Shown: piece by piece, positions 64-59,797 of the stretch
Layout of the letters: each line of letters opens with the position of its first letter
How positions within the stretch are numbered: position 1 is the first letter of the stretch
DNA from: a bacterium
GTDB lineage: Bacteria; Hinthialibacterota; Hinthialibacteria; Hinthialibacterales; Hinthialibacteraceae
Direction: 5' to 3'
NCBI GenBank assembly: GCA_963663405.2
Contig: CAXXSM010000091.1
Coordinates: 1 to 64,000 of the forward strand
Length of the DNA stretch: 64,000 bases
Position numbers and translations under genes: made by a program
Notes under the pieces: generated by a model
The model's database searches: none
Told to the model about the DNA's origin: nothing
What the model saw: only the letters and a program-made list of their open reading frames with translations

Positions 64-2868
64 TCATTCCTCCCCGCCTATAGCGAAGAGAACCAGTCCT
101 TCATCTTCTTCAAAGCCAGGTAACTTAGCGTATTTGGGATGTTGCTTTCCTCCCGTTAATTGAGGGATTTCATTCATCAGGTATGCGCCCAGTTCCTGTG
201 AGGTGATCACTCCGTCATTCGGACCTGTATCGGCGGCCCCTTTTTGAAGAGCCTCAATCAAGGCGCCGGTGAAAAAACTATGCCCCCCCGGCCCCCCGTC
301 GAGCACTTTCTCATCTTGTTCCCCGGCGGTGATCACTTCAACCGCGAATTCATCGGCCAGTTCAAGGAAATCCGCCGTGGCGGCGTCATCTCCCCCGAAT
401 TCCTCGAATCCCCCGCTTCGATCCACAAGCAACAAACCGGAATAGCAGGAATCAAAAATCAAAAGTATATGTTTCGCTTGAAAGTATTCATCGATTTGAT
501 CGCTGATATCCCTCATGCTAAGCCATGTGCGGCGCTCGTCAGCGGAAGGTGTCTTAGACGCGCTAAGCGCCCCATCAACGGGAATGATATATCCTGTTTT
601 CTTACCAGAGCGTGTCGAGGTCGAGTGGCCATGTCCCGCAAAAAAGATGATAACGCGGCTGTTTTTTTCTGCCCTGGAAACCTTTTGAAACGCGTCTAGG
701 ATCCCCTCCCGGTTTGCGTCATTATCAAAGACAGAGAATACATTTTCTTTCGGAAACTTATAATACTCGATCAAAAGTTCCTGTATCCCCTCCGCGTCAT
801 GCGCCGCGTTGTTTAATTTGGGCCAGTATTGATAGTCGTTGATTCCAACGATCATGGCGTAGTTATTCCCATAGAACATTGAATCAGATAAAGCCTGTTG
901 AACGCGAAGACTAAAAGGAATTTCGGTGATATTATTAAAATAATCCACAACTTGGATGAGAATCGTATTATCACCCGCCTGAAGGGTAAAACGTTGATCG
1001 AAATAGATATCATGCCCTGTCTTTTCCAAGCCGGCTTCTTCTAAATGAGAGGGGGAAGCGGGAACCATATATTCCACGGTCTGGTTATTCAAGCGCACAT
1101 CTTTAATCCCAGTGTCGTCCTGGGCCAGACCACGCACCAATCCACGGTTCGCGCTGGTCAATTGAATTTCAATCGGAATTCCCTGTCCACGTGTAATTAG
1201 CATTTGATCTTCTGTTACTTCAGGCCGGAGAAAATAGACATCGGGTTTCGTCGATTCAGGTTCCGGTTCTTTCAATGTGACCGGATACTCCTTTGAACCG
1301 AGTATATTCCCATTCCGATCGAACAACACAATCGGAATTTGATCGATATCCCGGACCAACACACTGGCTTTAAATGTATAGATCAGCGTACCGCCAAGAT
1401 CGACAGGTTTTGGAACTTTCGCTTCAAATCCATTCGCTTCGATTTTATCGATTTCGTCCTTGGCGATGGTTACAACACCTTCAATATCAAGATACTCCTG
1501 TGTGGCTTCATACGGAGATCCAGCGATGGAGGATTCAAGTTCTTCCGGCACGGTGATTGTAATTTTCACCGCCGGATTCGTTCCAGCTTGGGCAATGAGA
1601 ACCGGCGGTGAAGAATGTGGCGCTTCATCCGTTTTTACCGCATCCTCCGGAAGAGCGGCGATAATCTGTGTGGATGGTATATCATCGTAAGAAGAGTACT
1701 CCCACTCATCCTCCATAATCTGAATTTGTGTACTGAATTGATTCTCCAAGGAACCAGCAGGATACCCACGTAACGTTGAATTGGATTCCCACCCCTCTAG
1801 CGCCCGGTCAACAACATCCGGCGCGCCGTCCGGAATACGCACAGAGATACGGCCATCCCGATCCCCGATCCATATTCGATTGTATCGGTCGGACGCGACA
1901 GCGATCGCTCGATTGCTGACAAGGCCTTTTTTTGTATTTCTTTGTGTGACTTTTGTCCATTTGGAACCATTAAAGATCGAAACACCTTGATCCTGTCCAC
2001 CCCAGGAGCTCCATAGTTTCCCCTCCTCATCGATCGCCATGCTGGAAATAATATATTTCTTGATAGGCGCGCGCTCGAACGTCCAACGCTCTCCATCGTA
2101 AATTGAGATTCCGCCTTTTGTGGAACAATAGACACGGTTGTCTTTGCCATGAACAATACTGTAAATATAATCTTCATGGCTGTTTCTTCCCTGCAGAACG
2201 CGTTTAAACAAATTAGAGTCCTTGCGTTCCCAGGACCACCACTGATCATCATAGTAGACATTCACTCCACGCCAAAAACCGCACCAGACACGGCCATAAG
2301 GCCCAACGGCAATCTCACGGGCGTCGTTCTGCGCAATACCATCGTCCGTTGTATAGGTGGTCCACTGGCCTTCATCAAAAATCGCAACGCCTTTTTCAGT
2401 TCCGGCCCAGACACGGCCCTGTGGATCGGCGCAAAGAGTGTAAACTTCATCGGAAGGGAGTTCGCATGTCCCTTGCGAGAACGACGCGAAACGGACCTCA
2501 TTCATGACGGTGATTCCCTTCCCTTCCAAACCTCTTGTTTTATCCCAGCACGCGAACCAAACGCGGCCCCGCCGATCAACCGCGATATCGCGGACGATTT
2601 CCCCCGCCAGTTGGATGGATTTATCCTCTTCATTCACAACTTTTTCAACGCGCAGGAATAGTTCCCGGTCCACATCGTATCGCAACGCGCCCTTCTCCCC
2701 TCCGATCCAGACGCTATTTTCGCCAGCGCTCATGCACTTGATACGTCCCCCATAATCAAACTGCCGCCAATGTTCCGCACGAGCTGGTATCCCCAATACA
2801 GAGACTCCAAACAGAACTGATATAAATAGTCTTAAACATAAAGATGGAAACTGATTTCGCGCATTCAT
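64..2868 (-). CDS. Secreted multidomain protein: N-terminal two-component-regulator-type beta-propeller, Ig-like domains, C-terminal caspase/peptidase C14 domain
   Basis: Signal peptide (..GIPARA|E). Repeated D-x-x-G-R-V-W propeller blades. The C14 domain starts YAMIVGINDY and has the catalytic dyad motifs FFAGHG and IFDSCYSG, plus HSFFTGAL and QHP. Confidence 0.85.
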   Translation of the reverse strand: MNARNQFPSLCLRLFISVLFGVSVLGIPARAEHWRQFDYGGRIKCMSAGENSVWIGGEKGALRYDVDRELFLRVEKVVNEEDKSIQLAGEIVRDIAVDRRGRVWFACWDKTRGLEGKGITVMNEVRFASFSQGTCELPSDEVYTLCADPQGRVWAGTEKGVAIFDEGQWTTYTTDDGIAQNDAREIAVGPYGRVWCGFWRGVNVYYDDQWWSWERKDSNLFKRVLQGRNSHEDYIYSIVHGKDNRVYCSTKGGISIYDGERWTFERAPIKKYIISSMAIDEEGKLWSSWGGQDQGVSIFNGSKWTKVTQRNTKKGLVSNRAIAVASDRYNRIWIGDRDGRISVRIPDGAPDVVDRALEGWESNSTLRGYPAGSLENQFSTQIQIMEDEWEYSSYDDIPSTQIIAALPEDAVKTDEAPHSSPPVLIAQAGTNPAVKITITVPEELESSIAGSPYEATQEYLDIEGVVTIAKDEIDKIEANGFEAKVPKPVDLGGTLIYTFKASVLVRDIDQIPIVLFDRNGNILGSKEYPVTLKEPEPESTKPDVYFLRPEVTEDQMLITRGQGIPIEIQLTSANRGLVRGLAQDDTGIKDVRLNNQTVEYMVPASPSHLEEAGLEKTGHDIYFDQRFTLQAGDNTILIQVVDYFNNITEIPFSLRVQQALSDSMFYGNNYAMIVGINDYQYWPKLNNAAHDAEGIQELLIEYYKFPKENVFSVFDNDANREGILDAFQKVSRAEKNSRVIIFFAGHGHSTSTRSGKKTGYIIPVDGALSASKTPSADERRTWLSMRDISDQIDEYFQAKHILLIFDSCYSGLLLVDRSGGFEEFGGDDAATADFLELADEFAVEVITAGEQDEKVLDGGPGGHSFFTGALIEALQKGAADTGPNDGVITSQELGAYLMNEIPQLTGGKQHPKYAKLPGFEEDEGLVLFAIGGEE

Positions 2869-2916
2869 GATGACTTCTCCACATACTCCAAATCCGTAGA
2901 CTGCAAAAGCGTATAT

Positions 2917-4164
2917 TTAAAATCGGTATTCCAATCCGAAGGTGGGTATGAAATCCGTCCGCAATCCATCGTCATCCAATGGGATACGGACGCCTCCCTG
3001 CATGTAGAATCGATCCGTTAATTTCACGCGAGCCGCTACGCCTAGATCATTCGTCGTGGCGAAATTCGAATGAGAGTAGAGCCATTCCACACTCATAGTC
3101 CATCGCTCTTCAAACAGCATTACCGGCAAACCACACCGGAGTTCAAACGCGTCAAAATCACTGTCCTTGATACCAGTTGACGCAGAAACCAGTTGATATT
3201 GTCCATGAACATCCGTTGGTTCAATAATGTTAATCGCATTGCGAGCGTCTACTCCAGCAAAATTATAGGCCACTTCAACGACTGGATAACAAGGCCCGAA
3301 TCGCTTTCCCACAGCGCTGCGAATACGGTAGCCTAGATCCCCCGTACCGAGGAGTTTATCCTGGTTTCCATTATCGAGTTTGAAATCCAATCCCAGCGTC
3401 CATCCAAACAGATTATCTAGATCCTCTACTTCCATCACTTGATATTTCAGCCGTAAGAAAATATCCGCGATATCGGTTATGGATTTCTTAAAATCCGTAT
3501 ATCGAATGTCAGTGACGCCAATTCGGTAATCACCGGTTCCTTCCCCTTCCAGATGGACTAAAGGAACGATAATTCCCAAATCAAGCCGCTCTGTGAGTCC
3601 ATAGACCAAGGAAAGACTTGTAATCTCACCCGTCAAATCATAGGAACCATCCCATACTTTATCGCCTTTCTTGAAAAAAAGGCCGTCTTCCTCATAAACA
3701 AAGTCAAAAATATCATCCAGTTCCACCCCATGAATGGTCTGAAAATCAAGGAAAGCTGTATTAACGCCAAACGAGAAATTACCGGCGCCATTCGTCCAAG
3801 GAGGTTCAATGAAATAGGTCCCTAAATTCCCTGAAATGTAGAACATTCGATCCCGGCCAAAGAAGTACTGGGTCCCTGCGGCAGAGATAGCAAGATTAGC
3901 GATTTCATTGGCGGCCGCGGCCTGGACCGCGCTCCCCGCCGTTCCCAGTTTCAACAAGATATCTGGGCTTGTTATTATTCCAACCGATTCATCATCAACG
4001 GAAATAGAATCAGGATTGTAATATCCCAAAACCGAAGGAAAATCATATAACGTAAAATCAAAACTAGGCTTATCCTGCGCGGTAACGGAAGAAGGCAGGC
4101 CGAACGTAAGAACCACTATCCTCAAAATTAAATTAATAGATGAACTCGAGTGAATGTTTTTCAT
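2917..4164 (-). CDS. Outer-membrane beta-barrel protein (transporter / MetA-pathway-like family)
   Basis: Signal peptide, alternating amphipathic strands, YGLTERLDLGIIVP and D-x-x-L-x-x-K-Y motifs, LLGTG, C-terminal GLEYRF BAM signal. Confidence 0.7.
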   Translation of the reverse strand: MKNIHSSSSINLILRIVVLTFGLPSSVTAQDKPSFDFTLYDFPSVLGYYNPDSISVDDESVGIITSPDILLKLGTAGSAVQAAAANEIANLAISAAGTQYFFGRDRMFYISGNLGTYFIEPPWTNGAGNFSFGVNTAFLDFQTIHGVELDDIFDFVYEEDGLFFKKGDKVWDGSYDLTGEITSLSLVYGLTERLDLGIIVPLVHLEGEGTGDYRIGVTDIRYTDFKKSITDIADIFLRLKYQVMEVEDLDNLFGWTLGLDFKLDNGNQDKLLGTGDLGYRIRSAVGKRFGPCYPVVEVAYNFAGVDARNAINIIEPTDVHGQYQLVSASTGIKDSDFDAFELRCGLPVMLFEERWTMSVEWLYSHSNFATTNDLGVAARVKLTDRFYMQGGVRIPLDDDGLRTDFIPTFGLEYRF

Positions 4165-4428
4165 CGGATAAACCAGTATCTCAAATCCGCAGAAAGAAAG
4201 AGAACGTCTATAAGAACGCCAGCGCCCTAATGACGGCTTCGTTTTTTTCTTTTCGTTCTTTCTTTGCTACAAAAAAAATTAATAATCCTAAATTGTTAAT
4301 TGATTATCAATCGCATCGCGCACACTCAATTGTACACAATAATTCCCACGATTACAATTCAGTTTGTAAAGAAAAACATAGTGAGGAGGATTCGTTGAAC
4401 GAGTGAGTTTATGAAAGGTTTGAGAACA

Positions 4429-37406: not shown

Positions 37407-38528
37407 ATGAAATCTGTTTTAGTGACAGGGGCGAATGGATTCATCGGGAAAAATTTAATCGAGGCGTTAAAACCGATCGATAATATCAATGTCCTTTCGT
37501 ACGACATCGGTCAATCCCGGGAGACGTTAACTCGTTATTTAAACCAAGCGGAGGTGATCTATCATCTTGCCGGTGTCAACCGGCCGAAAGAGGATACGGA
37601 GTTTAAGACAGGGAATGCGGATTTTACAGAGGATATCTGTCAAGAACTGAACGCATTAAACCGGAAGGTAAAAATTATCTTTACTTCGTCCATACAAGTG
37701 GAAAGAAAAGAAAACGCCTACGGACATAGTAAGATGGCGGCCGAGAACGCTTTAAAAGATTTTGGAAAAGAGACGCATTCGCAGATATCCATTTATCGTC
37801 TAAAAAATGTATTTTGGCAAATGGTGTAGACCTAATTATAACTCCGTTGTCGCCACATTTTGTAATAATATTGCCAACGAGATCCCCATTCACATATCCG
37901 ACCCAGATCATTCCATCGAATTGATTTATATTGATGATGTTATCTCGTCATTTATTGATCAATTAACGAATTCAAACGAATCTCCCGTTGTAGAATATTG
38001 TGACGTCACTCCTTCTTATACAATTTCATTAAACGACTTAGCGGAAGCGATCAATCAATTTAAAAAAAGTAGAAAGACGCTGCTCATTCCGAATTTTGGA
38101 GATCCATTTCTACGGAAGCTATATGCAACCTACATTTCCTATCTTTCCGCGAACGATTTTTCATACCCTCTCGATATCAAATCGGACAATCGAGGCTGTC
38201 TAGCCGAATTTATTAAATCTCCCAGCAGTGGACAAGCTTTTTATCTCCCGCACTCTGCCCGGTATAACAAGGGGAAATCACTTTCATCACACGAAAGTTG
38301 AAAAATTCCTAATTGTACAGGGAACGGGGATGATTCGATTCAGACATATCCACTCGGACGATATTCATGAATACACAGTTTCCGGAGAGGAGATGAAAGT
38401 ATTGGATATTCCACCGGGTTATACCCATTCCATTGAAAACATTGGACAAGAAGAAATGGTCGTTCTTTTTTGGGCGAATGAGATCTTTGATCCAAAGAAT
38501 CCTGATACTTATTTTCGAAGTGTAATCA

Positions 38529-38536
<8 letters not shown>
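37407..38536 (+). CDS. fnlB: FnlB/CapF/WbjC reductase with C-terminal cupin, split by two apparent frameshifts (~37815, ~38240)
   Basis: HLAGVNRPK, GKWCRPNYNSVVATFC, RKLYATY, TRGNHFHHTKVEKF, PPGYTHSIEN, FWANE..PDTY, spread over three ORFs. Confidence 0.88.
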
Positions 38537-39664
<1,128 letters not shown>

Positions 39665-39679
39665 ATCAAAGGAGAAACA

Positions 39680-40235
39680 AAGATCACTGTTATTTCACCT
39701 GGGATGAAAACAAGACTCATCGAAAAAGGCGTTTCAGAAGAAAAAATCAAAGTCATCTTTAATTGGTGTGACGATTCATAGATTTTAAAAGTTCAGAATG
39801 CGGATCCCGCTTTGGTGGACGCGCTTTCCATCAGGCTAATTTAACATTGTTTTTGCCGGCAACATGGGTTACGTCCAGCACTCTCGGCGCTGTTATTGAC
39901 ACCCCGCCATTGTTCAATCGAAATGCCCTGATGTCCAATTTGTATTTATTGGCGGCGGCGTCATGTCGACGATCTTAAAAATTAAACCAAATCATTGAAC
40001 CTCAATAATGTAATTTTCCCATCCTAAAAATCCTCTCTCAGAGATCGGCGCTATCTTCAATCTGGTGGATGTGTTGTTCGTACATCTACATGATGATCCG
40101 CTTTTTAAAATCACGTTGCCTTCCAAAATCCAGGCATTAATGACAGCCGGAAAACCTATCCTCATTGGTGTACAAGACGATGCGGCGGGCTTTGTAGAAA
40201 GAGCGAATGCAGGCTTTCGTTGTCTACTGGAATGA
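39680..40235 (+). pseudogene. Truncated WbuB-like GT4 (L-FucNAc transferase) remnant
   Basis: KITVISPGMKTRLIEKGVSEEKIKVIFNW, NIVFAGNMG, FVFIGGG, VHLHDDPLFKITLPSKIQ, AGKPILIGV. No start codon or N-terminal half, an in-frame TAG near 39780, and several indels. Confidence 0.75.
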
Positions 40236-40377
40236 ATTATCTATCAGAATGGGAACCAATAAATATGAAACGTGTTACTCTCATTCGAAATGAAACAAGA
40301 AATCATAAATTGTAGGTAAATTTGAGAATTACATTTCTAAACCACGAACTCCATTTCAACGAGGAAGGATATACACC

Positions 40378-41101
40378 ATGAGAGCAGTTATTCTAGCGGG
40401 GGGGAAAGGGAAACGGCTACAACCCTATACATTCATCGTGCCCAAACCTCTCGTGCCGATCGGAGATATCTCCATCATCGAAATTGTCGTACGGCAAATT
40501 GGCGTATTATGGTTTCACTCATATTACTCTAGCGGTGGGATATCATGCGGAACTCATCATGGCGATTCTAAAAAACGGGGAAAAGTGGGGCATCCAGATC
40601 GATTACTCTTTTGAAGATAAGCCGTTAAATACAATCGGCCCTCTTCGTCTGATCGATAATTTGAGATACCCCGTTCCTGGTGATGAACGCCGATTTGCTT
40701 ACCGACATTGATTACCGTAAACTCATTGAATTTCATCTTCATAACAAGGCCATCGCTACAGTCGCTACTCATAAACGCCATGTTCGTTTAGAACTCGGTG
40801 TAATCGAAACCATTCAGAAAAATGGCATTGATCAGGTGGTCTCTTTCGTCGAAAAACCGGAGTATGATTTCAACGTCAGCATGGGAATTTACATCCTTGA
40901 TCCCCGGATCATGGACTACATTCCCCCCGATCAACCATTTGGATTCGATCAATTAATCTTTCATTTATTGGAGGCAACACGAACCGGTCTCCGTATATCC
41001 ATTCGATGGGCTTTGGTTGGATATGGGGAACACCGGGCGATCTTGAAAATACCGCCGAAGAATTTGAAAAACATAGGAAAAGGTATTTACCCGATGAGTA
41101 A
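40378..41101 (+). CDS. Sugar-phosphate nucleotidyltransferase (NTP_transferase), frameshifted
   Basis: AVILAGGKGKRLQPYT..PKPLVPIG, EDKPLNTIGPL, MNADLLTD, FVEKP, VSMGIY, WLDMG. The stop overlaps the next ATG. Confidence 0.85.
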
Positions 41102-42246
41102 TTGGAAAATTCCACTATTCACTCCCGATTTCTCCAGCGCCGACTGGGAGGCGGCCTGCGCTCCGATCCGTGACGCGTGGCTGACGATGGGCCAGCGGAC
41201 AAGTCAATTCGAACAAGCGTTCATCAACCGCACAGGGCGCCCGGCACGCCTTTGCCGTTTGTAATGGAACCGCCGCATTGCATCTCGGTTTGGTAAGCGT
41301 AGGAATTCAACCTGGGGATGAAGTCCTTGTTCCATCGCTCACGTTCGTCGCCTGCGCGAACACGATTGTCTCTCTTGGCGCCATACCCGTGTTTGTGGAT
41401 TGCTGTGAGGAAGAAGACTGGACCTTCTCTCCCGATGACGCGCTCCAAAAAATCACAGGACCGGACCCGCGCGATGATGATCGTTCATTACGCGGGATTT
41501 CCCTGCCGGATGGATCCAATTCTATCCATCGCCCGTTCGCGCGGTTTATCGATGATCGAAGACTGCGCCCACGCCATCTTCTCTTCACATGAAGGAAAAT
41601 TCTGTGGGACATTCGGTGATGTCAGCGCCTTCAGCCTCTTCAGCAATAAAAATATGACGACGGGTGAAGGGGGAATGGTGTTAACGAATTGATGACCAAT
41701 TGGCCGAACGTCTCCGCCGCCTGCGCTCTCATGGCATGACAACACTCACCCTTGACCGGCATGAAGGCCGGGCGGTTTCCTTACGATGTGACCGAATATG
41801 GTTTTAATTACCTGGATCGATGAAATCCGTAGCGCTCTCGGGCTTGTCTCAACTCGAACGATTGGATGAAAATCTAAAGCGGAGGACGCGCCATCTATCA
41901 ACTTTATATGGAACGCCTTTCGGAGATCGATGAAATCCTTATTCCATTTCTCTCACACAACGTGGATACGACGGGTATTCATATCTTCCCGATCATGCTC
42001 CGCAAGCCTGACGCGCGGGAAGCGTTTATGCGCGGCATGAAAGATGACGGAATCCAGACATCCATCCACTATCCACCCATCCATTCCTTCTCCGCATACC
42101 GGCAGCGTGTCAATAATGTCCGCTGTCCCCTCACGGAACGTATCGCCGCTGGAGAAGTGACGCTTCCATTCTACCCCGGCATGACGGAAGATGATGTTAC
42201 CCTCGTCTGCGATTCTGTGAAACGAAACGTACACGCCTGCCTTTAG
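41094..42246 (+). CDS. DegT/DnrJ/EryC1/StrS PLP-dependent aminotransferase, frameshifted
   Basis: WLTMG, NGTAALH, GDEVLVPSLTFVA, VHYAG, IEDCAHA, SLFSNKNMTTGEGG, GIQTSIHYPP, LPFYP. Confidence 0.88.
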
Positions 42247-42361
42247 TCATTTCAAATCGCTTTTTCTAGATCTAGAATTCACGCGGTTTTCCATTCTTTC
42301 TCATTCCAATCCATCTCTTTCACTTGAATTCGGTTGACGCCGGAGTCAATATCAACGATTA

Positions 42362-42456
42362 TTTATATGAAAATGAGTCCCTAAAACTTTCTCATTCGTA
42401 AACACTTCCACGACTCATTTTTATTTGCACGTTGTGATCTCAAATCATGATGGATT
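42362..42456 (+). repeat. Dispersed intergenic repeat family A, copy 2
   Basis: TTTATATGAAAATGAGTC..CTCATTCG.AAAC.CTTCC.CGACTCATTTT.AT.TGC..GATCTCAA, matching 16452-16543. Confidence 0.85.
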
Positions 42457-42621
42457 ATATTAGATTGATATCGTTGTGAACGGCGCAATTGAAGACTAAG
42501 CGGAAAAAGATGATATTTTTAATATGCGCCCAATGACTTAAATGTTGACTGACTCTCTATAGCCATTCATAAGTAAGTTTTATAGGTCTTTATTCACCAC
42601 CGAGTAAATCAGAGGATGATT

Positions 42622-44247
42622 ATGTATCTCGACTTTTTACCATATGATTCAACATCCTTTCCAATTGACTCCCGATCCGGCGTTTCTCTTGCTGAGTCCG
42701 AGTCACAAAGAAGCGTTGACTTCTATTATTTATGGAATCGACGATCGAAAAGGATTTGTTGTAATTGTAGGAGAAACCGGAACGGGGAAGACTACAATCG
42801 TCCGCACATACTTGGAAAACCGCAGCAACTTCCACGTACAACACGATAAAGAAAAAGGGGAAAACTTCAATCGTCCGCGTCAAACAAAGGCAAGGGAAGA
42901 CCGCAAACGGATCAAACCGATCTACCTTTTTTTTAACGCGGAAGTCACATTTAAAGATCTTTTAAAAGAAATTTCCCGGGAATTAGACGTCAAAGTGGAG
43001 AATGACAGCCTGTTGGTGATGGTCCGGAGATTATATCAAGCACTCAGCGATGAATACCAAAAGGGATACAATATCGCCCTTATCATCGATGAAGCCCAAA
43101 ACATGACCGTCGAAACGTTAGAAGAACTGCGTATGCTCTCCAACCTGGAAACAAGTAAAGAGAAACTGCTTCAAATTGTACTGGTCGGGCAGCCGGAACT
43201 GGATCAGAAGTTGAACCTTAATAAACTCCGACAATTAAAGCAGCGTATTGAAATCCGCGCCAATATCAAACCACTCACCAAAAAGCAGAGTATGACTTAT
43301 ATCCTGCACCGCTTATCCCAAGTTATCGTACCTGAAGATCGAATCCATACAATCTTCTCACCTGGCGCGTTGAAAGAGATCATTAAATATTCAAATGGGA
43401 TTCCCCGCATAATCAACAATGTCTGCGATAAGACTCTCCTCGCTGGTTTTTTCGATAAACAGAAACCGGTCTCAGCGCAATTGGCCAAAAAAGCGATCTC
43501 AGAACTGGAAGGTTATCAACAACCACACTGGCTTCGCCGCTTCGCGCCCGCTGGGAGCGCAGCAATCGCAACGGCAACGATTCTCACATTCCTGCTGTTT
43601 AATCCATTCTCCAACCGTGATTCTCAGCTGATCACAGAAAAGGGTAATGATACAAACACAACCATCCCCCCTAAACGCCAATCCGGACGAACCCACAATC
43701 GGCGCAATGATACAGTCATCCCCTTCTCCAACGCTTATTTCAAATTCTTCAATCCCAGAGCCATCAGCGGTTCCAACCAATGGAAATTATACTCCAACGC
43801 AGAACGTGATTTCTAATGATCCGACCGCTGCTCCTGATCATGCCAATAGACCGACACCTTCTACCACTATAGAAATAGCGCCATCAGTAACATCCACAAT
43901 CGCCCTCTCCCGCGCCTTCCGCCACATCGACTCTCGTTCCAACCCTCCAACCGACATCCACTCCACCGCCGGTGATCCCTCCAACTTTAACGCCTGCGCA
44001 CGAGACGAACTCTGACAACAATACCGGTGGAAAAACAGAGACAAAAAAACCAATACAATTCCCAGTAATCAAGATCGTAAAACGGGGGGATAATCTTCTC
44101 ACTCTCTGCAGTGAGATCTATGGCGCCACTCACAGCCAGATTATCAATCTAGTGAAAGAACATAATCCCGAAATCAACGATCCCGATATTATTATCACCG
44201 GTCACAAAATCATATTCCCAGAATACCCACCCAAAAACAAAAACTAG
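42622..44247 (+). CDS. ExeA/GspA-family AAA+ ATPase with TM helix, Pro/Thr linker and C-terminal LysM domain, frameshifted
   Basis: MYLDF..HPFQLTPDPAFL..HKEAL, Walker A GETGTGKTT, IIDEAQNM, LSNLET, LVGQPEL, LRQLKQRI, GIPRIIN. The last ORF has VKRGDNL..YG..NPEINDPDIIITGHKIIFP (LysM). Confidence 0.85.
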
Positions 44248-44364
44248 CGAAAAAATCCAAAAAAGGATCGATCTTCCACCTCATTCCCTGCAGACAAATC
44301 AATAAATGGATGGTATGATTCAAAGATAATACTATCATTCCAGTACCAACAGGGGGACAGTGAA

Positions 44365-45666
44365 ATGTTGAGCCGAACCGTTTCTTTTACTATCGCTATT
44401 ATGCGCGGTTACCAGCGTTCCATACGCTCAAGAATTGGGAGAGCCTTTTGCCAGTAACAACCGAGGAAAATGCGCAGCAATTTCCCGATGTTGTCTACAA
44501 CTCTCATAATAATCAATTTCTCGCCGTGTGGGAACATGTTGAACAGGATTACTCGCGGGATATATACGGAATCCTTTTAGATGGGGATTCCGGACAGCCA
44601 ATAGGAGAACCGATTCTTTTCATCGTCGATGATAATATCATCGAAGCCCCGGAACTCGCGTATAACAGCGTGGATAACGAATATCTCTTAGTCGCCCGCA
44701 GCCGGTATAATAATATGGCGTTCGCGCAGCGCGTTTCGGCGCAGGGGACAGCCGATTGGTGATCCGATTGAGATCGAGAGCAGCGGGGGTCCTACGTTTT
44801 TCGATCCAGCGGCGCGCGCCCGCGTCGTATCCATCGCCTATAATGCGGTAGATAATCAATATTTAATCGGCCTGGGGGATCAGCCACGCGCCCAAATTGT
44901 CTTTGCCGACCTTTCTCTTGACATCCCCTTCGATCCATTCGGAAACGGCACGAATCCAGCCGCCGCCTGGTCCAGTGTCAGCAATGTCTATCTAATGGCC
45001 TGGGAGGATCGGGAAACACGCGCCACCGGAGAGGAAAACCTAAGCGCCCAGTTAATATCCAATACGGGTGATCTTATTGGGGGATATCATAAAGATCCGC
45101 GATCAGGAATTCGCAGAAGAATCACCCCCGCATCGCGTATAATCCAGATGACGATCAATTCCTTGTGATCTGGGACGAACGCATCGGTTTTTCGAGCGGT
45201 CCTTGATCCACAGACTCTGACGGATACGATCGGCCAATTGATCAGCGCCGATGGACAAATGGTAGGCGATCCTATTCCCATTGAAGCGGGCACGGCGTAT
45301 ACGTTGCGGCAAGATGTAGACTACAGCCAAATTGCGGGGCAATATTTGGCTGTATGGAAAGGGGATGAAAGTGGAGATTTCGCGTTCGCGGATATCTTCG
45401 GTCGATTTATCAACCGGGACGGCCCTCTCGCCAGCGATATTTTTCTGATCTATGACGCCGGAGACGATAATACTAACGAAGGGAACGACCAACAATACTA
45501 TGATGAATCCAAACTCCCCGTGACCGCCGTCAATACGAACACAGGCTCATTCCTTGTGGTCTGGGAAGAAGCGGGGATCAATCGCAATCCGGAAGACCGC
45601 GATATCTACGCTCGTTTCGTTTCCGCGCCGGGCACATCGATTGATGCGTGGGAGATTTATCAATAA
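44365..45666 (+). CDS. Secreted ~7-bladed beta-propeller protein ending in TSIDAWEIYQ, frameshifted
   Basis: Signal peptide recovered across an indel (..LLSLLCAVTSVPYA|QE). Seven P-x-x-x-Y-N..F/Y-L-x-V-W-E/D repeats read across frames. Confidence 0.75.
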
Positions 45667-49365: not shown

Positions 49366-51171
49366 TCACTCTATAAAATCACGAAGTTTGCGGCTGCGAT
49401 TGGGATGGCGGAGTTTTCGAAGGGCTTTTGTTTCAATCTGGCGGACGCGCTCGCGGGTCACTCCGAAACGATTGCCGACTTCTTCCAAAGTGCGTTGATA
49501 GCCGTCTCCGATACCAAACCGGAGACGCAGAACGGTTTCTTCGCGCTCCGTCAGAGTTTGCAGCACGACTTCCAGCTGGTCGCTCATGATATGATCGGAG
49601 GTGGAAGCGGACGGAGAAAGAATGGTTTTATCTTCGATGAAATCGCCAAAGTGCGTGTCACCATCATCACCGACGGGCGTCTCCAACGAAATGGGCTGCT
49701 GCGCGATTTTAAAGACGGCGCGGATTTTATCCACCGGCATATCGATCAATTTCGCGATTTCATCGGGGGAGGGTTCGCGGCCGTTTTCCTGGACAAGGCG
49801 GCGGGAGACGCGGGTGATTTTGTTAATCGTTTCAATCATATGAACGGGAATCCGGATGGTGCGAGCCTGGTCGGCGATGGCGCGGGTGACGGCCTGACGA
49901 ATCCACCACGTCGCGTAGGTGCTGAACTTATAGCCCCGCCGGTACTCAAACTTATCCACCGCCCGCATCAAACCGATATTGCCTTCTTGGATCAAATCAA
50001 GGAACTGCAAACCCCGGTTGGTGTAATTTTTAGCGATTGACACCACGAGACGAAGGTTGGCTTTGACGACGTCCATCTTTGAAAGATAAGCCATATTATT
50101 CCCTTCATTAATCTTCTCGACGATGCTAGTGAAATTGGAGGGACTGTCTTTGATTTGTTTGTTCGCCTTCGCTTTTTCTTCTTTCGCGTGCGCCAAAGAC
50201 TTGCATAATTGCACCAATTCACCGCGGGATTTTCCCGTGCGCTTCTCCAATTCACTCCGGCCGAAGCTGGTATGTTTTAATTTCCTGTATAATTCCCAGA
50301 TTTCATTGACGGGCAGTTGGAGCGTTTCCTCGATCCGCTTCGTTTCTTTTTTCGCGTTGATGACTTTTCGATGCAGTTCAATGAGATGATTGGCGATCTT
50401 GCCGATTAATTCATGATCGAATTTCATCTTAATCAGCATTTCACCAAGCCGGGCTTTCATGCCGTACAACTTAGGAAGGTTCTTTTTATTACTCCGCCGT
50501 TCCAAGGCGGTGATTTTTTCGTAAGCTTTTTCGATTTCCGTAAATTTTCGACGCAGATCCGCAATGATGGTTTGGCGATCGTTATCCGTGAACTGCTCTT
50601 TCAAATCAAAATTCTGAATCACTTCTTCCAGGCGGACATCTCCCCGTTCCAACCGGTCAAGGAGAGTTCTGATTTCTTGATAGGCGGTTTTACTGCGGGC
50701 CAACGCCTTACAGACCAAAAACCGTCCTGTTTCAATTTTCTTCGATAATTCAATCTCTTGTTCCCGTGTTAAAAGCGGGACACGTCCCATTTCCCGCAAA
50801 TACAACCGTACAGGATCATCCACCCGGACTCGATCTTCTTCGACCGATTCTTCTTCCTCCGGTTCTTCTTCCTCTCCGCTGGCGCTATCCCGGCTGGATT
50901 GTTTTTTAGTTTCTTCCTCCTCGTTCTCTTCTTCCTCTTGTTCTTCGAACCGATTCACGACGGCAATTCCTCGATCGTTCAAGGCGATAAAGATATCATC
51001 AATGTCATCCACGCTGATAGTTTCATCGCTGATCATACGATTGACATCATCGTAGGTTAACCGCCCGTTTCGCTCTTCCAGTTCAATCAGTTTTCGGATC
51101 TTTGTGCCATTGACACTCAAAGAACCATTATGCGTCTTCTTGACTTGAAAAGCTTTCGCCATGGATTGCAT
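49366..51171 (-). CDS. rpoD: Primary RNA polymerase sigma-70 factor
   Basis: Region 1.1 with acidic linker, [75 protein letters not shown]. Confidence 0.97.
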
Positions 51172-55456: not shown

Positions 55457-57140
55457 ATGAGAGTAGTACAAATTACTATAGTATTAGGATTATGCGGAGT
55501 ATTGGCGGCCTCGGGTTGGGCGCTTGATGTGGAAGTAAACAAATCCGGTCCCGTTACAACGATTCAAGATGCGGTTGATCAGATCGGCGATCAAGGCGGT
55601 GTCATCACAATCACCGACAGCGGTATCTATGAAGAGACGGTGTTGATCGGAAGCGACATGGCGAGAACCGGTCAGCCAATCACACTCACATCGACCCAGA
55701 CAGGTGACGATCGTCCTGTGATTTCACCTCTCGCCACATTAGGGCCGTTTGTGGAAGCGCAACGAGCCGACCGATTGGCTGGGGTGGCTCTCTTCATCGA
55801 TGGCAGCATAATCTCAAATGTGATTTTAGAAGCCAACCCAGATGCGCAGGGAGTCGGCGCAAACGGAAGTTGCGCCCTTTTCGTGATGGCGGATAACGTC
55901 ACGATGGAGAACGTCCTGGTCCGTCCTCGCGCAGGAACGGCTGGAGAAACCAATTATCCCAACTCCGCTGTTTTCTATGCGCAGGAAGGCGCTGGGGAAA
56001 CCGCCGAAGCGGGAGGACGCAATTGCAACGGCTGTGTCGTCCGCAATTGTGATTTTATGGGCGTCGCTACGGATGGAGTGACTGAACCCACCGTTGATGG
56101 GATGACCTGCTTCTTAAATTCGAAAGAAAACGGCCAGTTTGCGACCTTCTTGCGAACCGACCATTTCACCAATAGCGACGATCAACAGGTGACGATTACA
56201 GTCGAGAATAGTACGTTCCGTTATTCCTACGACGCGGGTCTCTTCTTCTCCAACCGCGCAGGGGGAGCGGGAAGATTGACACTGGATGTGAAAGATTGCT
56301 ATTTTGACGCATTCGGTAAATTTCAGATCGGCGTCCGGGGCGTATGGCTGAATGTCGAACGCTCTATTTTCAGCCGAGCCTGCCAGGGCAATCATGGAGA
56401 TGGTGAAAATTCAGCGATCCGCATTCAAGAGCAAAACGGCCGTATCCCCGACGCGAATATCTCCAATTGTCTCTTCGTCAATTGTGGCGGCGCCTATGCG
56501 AAAAAAGCGTATTACGGCGGTGTAAACAATCACAACGCGGGCGTTGTCAACGTGAATCATTGCACATTCGATCTCTGCTGTTCCGGCGTGACGTTGAATA
56601 GTCCAAAACCGGAAAGCGTTTTGAATGTCAGCAACTGTATCTTTAATCGTATCGGTTACAACGCCTCCCCCGCCATTGATGAAGTGGGCTTGCTTCCGGA
56701 AACAACCGATCCTTATGTCCTTTGGTATTCCGCCAATTTTGAATCAGGCGGCAACATATCCGCCGTCTTCAACAATTACACAGATTCAGGGAACGGTGAA
56801 TTGAATGTCACCAACTGCATCGTAAACGACATCGCGGAAGAGGACAGCGGTGAATATCTTCCCGGCGATCCTCCTCTTGGTACACGACTTTCGGCGGGCA
56901 CAGTGAATATGACCGACGTGACACGCGCCGATCCCCAATTCGCCAATCTCGATATGAACGGAGATACGCCCTACGAATTGGCTGAAGGCTCCCCCGCCAT
57001 CGACGCCGGTGTTGATGGAGAACCAGCCGCTGGCGACCTCGATCTCGATGGTTCCGCCCGCCCTTGCCGGTTCCGCCGTTGATATTGGCGCGCAGGAATA
57101 CGGTTCAGAAACCGCTGTACTAGAATGGTCTATCTGGTAA
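55457..57140 (+). CDS. Secreted parallel beta-helix protein with choice-of-anchor-Q-like end and terminal TAVLEWSIW, frameshift near 57061
   Basis: AAAGGAG RBS, signal peptide, TIQDAVD..GIYEETV, N/C-rich beta-helix. GSPAIDAG..DLDG..R continues as GSAVDIGAQEY after removing one C. Confidence 0.85.
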
Positions 57141-58615: not shown

Positions 58616-59797
58616 ATGAAACAGAATCGGCGGGATTTTATAAAAACGGCTCAACACACCGTGTTGGCTTCCGCACTGGTCAGTGTAGGCTCTCATCCAA
58701 TCCTAGGCGCGAACGAACGGATTCGCATGGGAGGTATCGGCGTTGGCGACCGGGGAACCGACCGGCTTCGCGCCGCTCAGCGTCTGGGCGCAAAGGTAGT
58801 GGCGCTCTGCGATGTGAATGAATTGATGCTGGACCGGGCTCAGAACAGCTTGGGAGGTGAAGCGGACCGGTATAGCGATCATCGAAAGATCCTTGAACGG
58901 AAAGACATTGACGCCTTTGTGCTGGCCACTCCTGACCACTGGCATCACGACATCTTTCTCGACGCAATGGAAGCCGGGAAAGACGTATACCAGGAAAAAC
59001 CACTCTCTCATACCATCGAAGAAGGCAAGAGCATGGTCGAAGCGGCGCAAAAAACGGACCGGGTGGTTCAAATCGGAAACCACCGCCGCAGTGGGAAACA
59101 TTGGCATGACGCGTATCAACTCATCAAAGAAGGCGTGATCGGTGATGTGAAATGGGTGCGGACCTACGACTGCCGCCATTGGGCCGATGGGGATCCTTAC
59201 CAAGCACGGGGACACGATAAAAATTTATATAATCCAGATAAATTGGATTGGGAGCGATTTCAAGGCAACGCGCCTAAACACCCCTATCATTCCGACCGCG
59301 CCTCCGCCTGGCGGTGGTATTGGGATTACGCCGGGGGCCTCTTAACGGATATCGGAGCGCATAATATCGATGTCGCGATGTGGATGACAGACTCAACAAC
59401 GCCGAAATCGGTTGTTTCTAATGGCAACGTCTATCATCTCGATTTCTGGGAGACGCCCGATATCTGCCATACAACGATGGATTTCGGACATTGCAGCGTC
59501 GATTTTACCGCGCAATTCGTGAATGGATTTGAAGGATACGGACATACAATTTATGGAACGAAAGGAACCCTCGTTCAAGTTCATCCTACAATCACGGTTT
59601 ATCTTCACGAAAAAGGTAAAACGCCGGTAGAAACCTGGGAGATGAATGATGAGGGGATCGATCACATGCGGAATTTCCTCGAATGCGTGAAATCCAGGGA
59701 AGAGACCAATTCTCCCATCGAGACCGCGCACCAAGTCATTACCGCCTGTCATTGGAGCAATATCGCCTACCGGGAAAACCGCAAGATTCTACTTTGA
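58616..59797 (+). CDS. Tat-exported Gfo/Idh/MocA oxidoreductase
   Basis: NRRDFIK twin-arginine signal, IGVGDRG, ATPDHWH, YQEKP, WRWYWDYAGGLLTDIGAHNID. Confidence 0.92.
   Translation: MKQNRRDFIKTAQHTVLASALVSVGSHPILGANERIRMGGIGVGDRGTDRLRAAQRLGAKVVALCDVNELMLDRAQNSLGGEADRYSDHRKILERKDIDAFVLATPDHWHHDIFLDAMEAGKDVYQEKPLSHTIEEGKSMVEAAQKTDRVVQIGNHRRSGKHWHDAYQLIKEGVIGDVKWVRTYDCRHWADGDPYQARGHDKNLYNPDKLDWERFQGNAPKHPYHSDRASAWRWYWDYAGGLLTDIGAHNIDVAMWMTDSTTPKSVVSNGNVYHLDFWETPDICHTTMDFGHCSVDFTAQFVNGFEGYGHTIYGTKGTLVQVHPTITVYLHEKGKTPVETWEMNDEGIDHMRNFLECVKSREETNSPIETAHQVITACHWSNIAYRENRKILL

Follow-up and report, generated by a model that had tools for sequence, protein, structure and literature searches.

A modular C-terminal tag, with a putative sorting or docking role, on unrelated Sec-exported proteins of a Candidatus Hinthialibacterota lineage

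Two secreted proteins with similar C-terminal tails

The DNA analyzed here is a stretch of 64,000 nucleotides (positions 1 to 64,000 of contig CAXXSM010000091.1, assembly GCA_963663405.2; hereafter the window) from a bacterium assigned to the Hinthialibacteraceae, and it harbors two genes for predicted secreted proteins, a beta-helix protein and a beta-propeller protein, that end in similar tryptophan-containing tails of about ten residues, referred to here as the W-tag. The beta-helix gene (55457..57140, + strand), delineated from the list of open reading frames (ORFs), tblastn, the NF041518 model, and Foldseek, encodes a right-handed beta-helix protein of ~560 aa with a choice-of-anchor Q domain and a clear signal peptide (55457-55522, +; MRVVQITIVLGLCGVLAASGWA, then LDVEV). 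Its structural matches in Foldseek included PL6 chondroitinase B and GH136, pointing to a polysaccharide lyase or GH136-like protein. The choice-of-anchor Q domain ends in DIGAQEY and is followed by the linker GSE (57102..57110, +), by the W-tag TAVLEWSIW (57111..57137, +; 17.9 bits), and by the TAA stop codon at 57138-57140, confirming the tail that the initial annotation had placed at 57111-57140, directly before the stop.

The beta-helix tail joins the ORF at 55457-57082 solely through one frameshift near 57057-57061, within the run GCCCGCCC. Consistent with this, tblastn of the homologue P0002 against the window showed 73% identity over residues 1-534, with residues 533-559 matched in the next frame. 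For the choice-of-anchor Q model NF041518 (cut-off 25 bits), the homologues P0006 and P0011 passed with 29.0 and 26.3 bits, respectively, and the window ORF reached only 23.9 bits because the frameshift removes profile positions 46-58. In P0006, the model spans residues 504-546 of 558 (profile positions 17-57 of 58), leaving 12 residues that correspond to the linker and the tag.

The propeller gene (44365..45666, +), recovered by tblastn of the orthologue P0042 and three-frame translation, from which its start near 44365 was read by eye, encodes a secreted protein of ~430 aa with FLVVW...DIYGQ repeats. Foldseek matched the family to seven-bladed propellers in a generic manner (e.g., CylK, YncE, and WD40), and the AlphaFold model of P0042, based on a 28-row alignment, had a predicted template modeling score (pTM) of 0.87. 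The tblastn alignment of P0042 placed frame changes in the window gene near 44430, 44745, 45117, and 45194, that is, four or more breaks, and a frameshift divides the signal peptide of the window gene, which is intact in P0042. The tail shares its frame with the final 306 codons: the linker SAPG (45622..45633, +), which by alignment A2 and the P0042 model connects the tag to the final propeller strand DIYARFV, is followed by TSIDAWEIYQ (45634..45663, +) and the TAA stop codon at 45664-45666. The ending PG-TSIDAWEIY-Q at 45634-45666, with the stop directly after it, therefore stands as first described. The initial annotation had also stated that one of the two examples needs a frameshift correction, which holds for the beta-helix tail, whereas the frame changes of the propeller gene itself had gone unremarked.

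Conservation, position, and carriers of the motif

Six-frame translation of the window contains the pattern initially proposed, T-x-[IV]-x-x-W-x-I-[YW], twice, each time directly before a stop codon, a circular result since those two tails had supplied the pattern. Scored against each other, the two tails reached a BLOSUM62 score of 21, and a score of at least 21 was found in 31 of 65,341 pairs of window ORF tails, so that ~0.58 equally similar pairs would be expected among the 1,225 pairs of 50 proteins. The resemblance of the two tails alone is thus not significant, and the pairwise statistics were replaced by leave-one-family-out profile tests. A 9-column profile, trained exclusively on beta-helix homologues (21 distinct tails), was run over 1,787 ORF ends, taken in all six frames from the window and from 13 retrieved loci. 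Results revealed that 13 tails of the beta-helix family ranked first, followed by the window propeller tail with 15.7 bits, and that the next best end scored 9.2 bits. In the six-frame scan of 379,011 positions, 14 matches reached at least 15 bits, each with a stop within one codon, and none of the positions not followed by a stop reached 15.7 bits (top score, 14.8 bits). The shared motif is hence real, but demonstrable only with homologues.

Among the homologues of the beta-helix protein (41 matches including the window's own protein), the tag was carried by 23 of 40, with identities of 36-73%, and their tails follow [ST]-x-[VI]-x-x-W-x-[LIV]-[FYRQH] with 0-1 residue thereafter. The tag tryptophan is among the 57 invariant columns of the beta-helix alignment A1. 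The 164 C-terminal residues of the propeller, used as query in an exhaustive search, returned 1,573 matches, and among the best 150 of these only two close orthologues (P0042 and P0043; 53-55% identity) carried the tag; P0042, which is intact, and P0043, a fragment, end in ...EPTITGL[QR]DWALFE and scored 12.8 and 13.7 bits, respectively, against the beta-helix profile.

Two further families with the tag were found. In the flank of the beta-helix locus L001, a tandem Peripla_BP_6 protein of 832 residues with a signal peptide (L001:3340-5838) ends in ...SFSKNWEIFQ, and the tag was present in 5 of the 28 members found of this periplasmic-binding family; four tagged orthologues scored 11.6-20.3 bits, and P0192 itself 5.8 bits. 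In addition, a BNR-like protein of 327 residues with a signal peptide (L011:12875-13858; Hinthialibacteria OLB16) ends in ...SSIENWMLMER. A variant of the tag (e.g., SAVESWSQY; 8.0-12.3 bits) occurs in 4 of the 17 members of its family (63-100% identity), for some of which BNR_2 is precomputed. Representatives of the four tagged families showed no significant mutual similarity (best E 0.034), bearing out the initial view that the beta-helix and the propeller are unrelated proteins and extending it to the periplasmic-binding and BNR-like representatives.

The family-weighted consensus of the 34 distinct tails is [ST]-[SGA]-[VIL]-x-[DNE]-W-[ESA]-[LI]-[YF] plus 0-2 residues, preceded by a short Gly/Pro/Ser/Thr linker, so that the motif as originally written was too narrow. 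The tag is net acidic, with D/N/E conserved ahead of the tryptophan. Its strictly terminal position held in all 34 distinct tails, with 0-2 residues after the aromatic residue, and its association with secreted proteins was likewise borne out: signal peptides occurred in all four tagged families, versus 43 signal-peptide-like genes among 173 background genes. Within this sample, one of the two outcomes that the initial annotation had named as refuting, a motif as frequent on cytoplasmic as on secreted proteins, did not occur. The crude heuristic used for signal peptides under-calls, with 18/23, 1/2, 4/5, and 3/4 in the beta-helix, propeller, periplasmic-binding, and BNR-like families, respectively; the misses comprise five proteins with signal-like N-termini by eye, P0018 with a long N-terminal extension, the fragment P0043, and P0194, whose sequence starts within the signal peptide. 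Moreover, the codons of the tag vary synonymously (e.g., TCN/AGY for Ser and TTR/CTN for Leu), indicating selection on the peptide.

The initial annotation had named as a refuting outcome that the motif is simply the last structural strand of each fold; this was not what was found, as the tails of both folds had a low predicted local distance difference test (pLDDT) score and homologues end before the tail. In the P0042 model, the last confident strand covers residues 410-417 and tail residues 421-430 have pLDDT <50. In the P0002 model (pTM 0.86), pLDDT is <50 over residues 515-559, which is the weaker evidence because this stretch also takes in part of the choice-of-anchor Q domain. Propeller homologues of similar size end in DIYGQRVAG, 12-14 residues sooner than the tagged proteins and 2-5 residues past the DIYGQ.V strand (alignment A2). 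A propeller tail serving as the last blade strand was considered, given that the internal PLASDIFLIY resembles TSIDAWEIY, and was ruled out by the homologue ends and the unstructured tail in the model; the N-terminal strand at residues 22-30, which in the model may be available for closing the propeller ring, would be another ground against it. In alignment A3, the outgroups of the periplasmic-binding family stop 8-12 residues sooner (P0208 ends in ...TLLEEP), and P0198 runs on from the end point of P0208 with TSAVAEWDLYK. The remaining 13 of the 17 BNR-like members (41-48% identity) stop at ...YATGVEAGIP, just ahead of the tag. Taken together, the tag is conserved under protein-level selection, strictly terminal, and independent of the fold.

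The position of the tag was also informative in the propeller-repeat outgroups, which comprised the best 150 of the 1,573 propeller matches minus the two tagged orthologues. The W-tag was found in none of these 148 proteins (best score, 2.0 bits), and a crude sorting of their ends gave 31 YLP-like ends, 12 with a hydrophobic helix and basic tail, 23 right after the last strand, and 82 others. The YLP-like ends, [VI]-[YF]-L-P-[LI]-[VI]-x-R, occur for instance in P0049, P0059, P0061, P0114, P0147, and P0153; the model NF053834 ('ultrashort_CTERM') passed its cut-off in P0153, and NF050076 (sort_motif_YLP) matched five proteins with 11.5-13.9 bits, all below its cut-off of 15. Furthermore, IPTL-CTERM passed its cut-off in P0145, and Dockerin_1 was detected in P0119. 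As judged from these sequences, the slot of the tag is an anchor slot, in which outgroup homologues either stop just before the tag or carry other sorting or docking modules.

Genomic surroundings and host

Several observations concern the beta-helix family and its neighbors. Two tandem paralogues (L005:429-2114 and 2518-4269) share the tail ASVRDWSIF with two synonymous differences in its coding. In distant homologues (P0022, P0023, P0025-P0035, P0037, and P0040, and L008:9995-11800 of a Verrucomicrobiia locus), a conserved C-terminal extension of ~60-90 residues ending in ...G.GNQ[FY]FA[VI].KQ replaces the W-tag; it was not annotated by Pfam (P0023 and P0032) or NCBIfam (P0023 and P0026) and may be another sorting domain. 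The only recurrent neighbor of the beta-helix gene was a Gfo/Idh/MocA oxidoreductase, adjoining it in 4 of 14 sources (window 58616-59797, L001:11818-13179, L010:2875-4218, and L013:6944-8287), and the copies of the window, L010, and L013 have a twin-arginine-like N-terminus by eye. This oxidoreductase was rejected as a reader of the tag and is probably a partner in sugar metabolism. At L007, a giant ORF spanning 3,251 codons or more (L007:1-9756), open at the contig end, lies directly upstream of a tagged beta-helix gene and encodes an RTX-repeat protein with 14 stretches of RTX calcium-binding repeats, ending in ...NVNADWMIKAAL, which is loosely tag-like only.

The tagged propeller gene lies at the end of a polysaccharide locus, directly downstream of a gene for an AAA_22 ATPase with a LysM-like C-terminal piece (42644-44247, +). 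This ATPase resembles TIGR03015, the ATPase of the XrtA/PEP-CTERM system, with 227.5 bits, below the cut-off of 324.5, and no exosortase was seen in the window. A frameshift splits the ExeA-like ATPase part (42644-43816) from the LysM part (43972-44247); within the ExeA-like ORF, the stretch SGSNQWKLY (43766-43792, +) scored 10.4 bits, seven residues ahead of the stop created by the frameshift, and is probably due to chance, given 12 internal matches of at least 10 bits in 239,022 positions. Farther upstream, epimerase and nucleotidyl-transferase genes are fragmented (37807-41264). Frameshifts break many genes of the window, among them those at 37807-45666 and 57050-57065, a pattern expected of a noisy assembly; they look like homopolymer errors rather than gene decay.

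The window has a G+C content of 45% and an ordinary bacterial gene set that includes rpoD, tatA/tatC, pfk, a polysaccharide-synthesis locus containing sulfotransferase genes, and ABC transporters. A putative outer-membrane protein (OMP) of 415 aa without a Pfam match (2917-4164, -) ends in the OMP-type GLEYRF, and this beta-signal indicates that the organism is probably diderm. Adjoining it, a 934-aa signal-peptide protein (64-2868, -) combines Reg_prop repeats with a caspase-like Peptidase_C14. The closest relatives of the window proteins are labeled Candidatus Omnitrophota, and the top-ranking locus, L001 (73% identity at the protein level), belongs to the metagenome-assembled genome (MAG) SURF_12. 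The main text of one study places SURF_12 in the phylum OLB16 (Ca. Hinthialibacterota), once part of Omnitrophota, and presents this lineage as uncultured and thought to break down complex polysaccharides (PMC9324843). The tag-carrying MAGs were labeled either Omnitrophota or Hinthialibacteria (OLB16).

Known C-terminal signals and candidate roles of the tag

No model matched the tail in the Pfam and NCBIfam scans run on tagged proteins. Literature searches for the tag found nothing, and the expression 'C-terminal' is absent from the main text, supplements aside, of PMC9324843. The nearest known counterpart is the NCBIfam YLP-box 'ultrashort' motif (NF050076 with 11 positions and NF053834 with 10), on which no paper was found in the literature searched. 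Like the W-tag, it comprises ~10 residues at the extreme C-terminus without a transmembrane helix or basic tail, its role is only putative, and it ends outgroups of the W-tag's own propeller-repeat family; the W-tag, in turn, occurs on several unrelated signal-peptide families of one lineage, in the manner of the YLP-box type. The two nevertheless differ in sequence ([VI]-Y-L-P-[LI]-V-x-R versus [ST]-x-[VI]-x-[DNE]-W-x-[LI]-[YF]) and in the lineage of their carriers, and the YLP-box hidden Markov models had no match in nine distinct tagged proteins (P0006 and P0042 at E <= 1; eight proteins at E <= 10).

The better-known LPXTG/sortase, PEP-CTERM/exosortase, GlyGly-CTERM/rhombosortase, IPTL-CTERM, and MYXO-CTERM systems resemble the W-tag in being lineage-restricted and present on many unrelated signal-peptide proteins, and tripartite signals share its slot in the outgroups (IPTL-CTERM in P0145; 12 of 148 ends with a helix and a basic tail). 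Tripartite sorting signals require a transmembrane helix and a basic tail past the signature motif. As the initial annotation had argued, the W-tag has neither, with only 0-2 residues after the motif and no NCBIfam match to a tripartite signal, making sortase- or exosortase-type membrane cleavage unlikely. The distinction drawn there from the C-terminal domains of type IX secretion was upheld as well, since tag and linker together amount to 12-14 residues versus a domain of ~70-100 residues, and no such NCBIfam match was obtained. Dockerins, like the W-tag, are attached through a linker to the C-terminus of secreted binding proteins and glycan-active enzymes, and Dockerin_1 occupies the same slot in P0119; the dockerin (PF00404), however, is a calcium-binding domain of ~60 residues versus ~10 for the tag, and no cohesin-like partner was found here.

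The hydrophobic-aromatic end close to the carboxyl terminus is shared with OMP beta-signals and PDZ ligands. An OMP beta-signal is the last strand of the barrel, with alternating hydrophobic residues and an aromatic end. Unlike it, the W-tag is carried by soluble proteins (beta-helix, propellers, and periplasmic-binding folds) rather than barrels, its hydrophobic residues do not alternate (+3, +2, 0, and -3 relative to the tryptophan), and residues may follow the aromatic one. The WxL domain (PF13731), a module for binding the Gram-positive cell wall, covers ~150-200 residues and has W-x-L close to the C-terminus of surface proteins. The W-tag is far shorter and its host is of a different type; PF13731 gave no match, P0042 and P0006 being without any Pfam family and the model being absent among the matches of the L001 periplasmic-binding and L011 BNR-like proteins.

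As far as sequence comparison can tell, the tails are therefore copies of a modular, lineage-restricted C-terminal tag of ~10 residues that unrelated soluble proteins exported by Sec have acquired at their ends. The lineage-specific C-terminal signal of the initial annotation is thus supported as a tag that is terminal, attached to signal-peptide families, and located beyond the fold, with export or attachment as its putative role. As to that role, we lean toward a tag that is read in trans, likeliest as an added strand, to dock, retain, or further sort its cargo in the envelope. Sec export would come first, leaving the tail exposed and flexible; an envelope component would then read the tail in trans, the likeliest mode being an added strand built around the invariant tryptophan and the hydrophobic-aromatic end, and the reading would retain, dock, or further sort the cargo at the envelope or surface, like a minimal dockerin or an 'ultrashort' sorting motif. 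With periplasmic-binding proteins among the carriers, secretion into the medium is less favored than docking or retention.

Several points weigh against this interpretation or narrow it. No reader, receptor, or peptidase was found among the neighbors in the window and in flanks of up to 10 kb around one bait family. The unbiased sample is small, with three tagged genes besides the bait family among 173 genes of the window and 11 loci, of which one is the example first annotated and one (P0192) reaches only 5.8 bits. Of the internal profile matches of at least 10 bits (12 in 239,022 positions), eight are the propeller repeat motif DWDIY, a cross-talk of the profile with the propeller family. 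The low pLDDT of P0002, which extends over its final 45 residues and reaches into the choice-of-anchor Q domain, may reflect its shallow 23-row alignment rather than true disorder. Moreover, the varying number of residues after the aromatic one (0-2) leaves the distance to the carboxylate unfixed and speaks against a strictly carboxylate-anchored reader, and solute-binding carriers need no export past the periplasm in a diderm, which fits docking or retention better than secretion.

Among the alternative explanations, the tail might be a ligand of a periplasmic PDZ-type or tail-specific protease or of a chaperone, controlling turnover, quality control, or activation rather than location. PDZ domains of DegS/Prc-type proteases bind C-terminal peptides with hydrophobic-aromatic ends, such as the W-x-[LI]-[YF] that lies at or near the carboxyl terminus here and is flexible in the models, and periplasmic-binding proteins among the carriers would fit a periplasmic reader. 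This explanation is nonetheless unlikely, as PDZ domains normally need a fixed free carboxylate whereas 0, 1, or 2 residues follow the aromatic one, and as conservation reaches five residues upstream of the tryptophan ([ST], [VIL], and [DNE]), beyond the needs of a degron. The outgroup slot, moreover, holds sorting and docking modules rather than degrons, and the genes of the window include no recognized PDZ protein.

A direct contact of the tail with the membrane interface, lipopolysaccharide, or exopolysaccharide, giving a peripheral anchor without a dedicated protein reader, would agree with the preference of Trp, Tyr, and Phe for membrane interfaces and sugar stacking, with the place of the propeller gene in a polysaccharide-synthesis locus with sulfotransferases, and with the failure to find a reader. 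Such an anchor is rather improbable: a net acidic tag with a conserved D/N/E is a poor match for sulfated polymers or anionic membranes, an amphipathic helix anchor takes more than nine residues, and position-specific conservation resembles protein-protein recognition. It is very improbable that the tail instead forms part of its own protein's structure, closing or capping the domain in cis, with a merely coincidental likeness across several folds. The pattern could form a beta-strand and the propeller repeats hold the similar DWDIY, but pLDDT falls below 50 in both tails, right behind a confident strand in P0042, homologues of three families are complete without the tail, and the motif follows four unrelated folds. 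Finally, the two short tails might resemble each other by chance, or as a side effect of a DNA or RNA element located where genes end. The insignificance of the pair alone (0.58 expected among 50 proteins) and a match of a loose pattern to the end of one antisense 78-aa ORF at 50909 could be cited in favor of this explanation, but it can practically be dismissed, being contradicted by the profile tests, the orthologue conservation in four families, and the synonymous codon variation.

Returning to a tag read in trans within the envelope, we propose, more tentatively, that the W-tag could serve as an address label for an as yet undescribed pathway of envelope sorting or docking in OLB16, in which a dedicated receptor or translocon would recognize this non-membrane C-terminal peptide of ten residues on enzymes and binding proteins exported by Sec, and would either present them at the cell surface or mount them on a scaffold. 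Time and again, C-terminal sorting signals have pointed the way to the machinery that recognizes them (sortases, exosortases, rhombosortase, and type IX secretion), and a conserved terminal tag of ten residues on at least four unrelated exported families offers a concrete starting point in the search for machinery of this kind. For annotation, recognizing the tag would recover a tail that scans miss and that frameshifted assemblies like the present one hide. If a reader were found, it would become easier to predict which enzymes of the lineage are displayed or docked, and if the proposed pathway is true, the W-tag and the YLP-box would together make up a class of C-terminal sorting signals that are 'ultrashort' and function without a transmembrane anchor.

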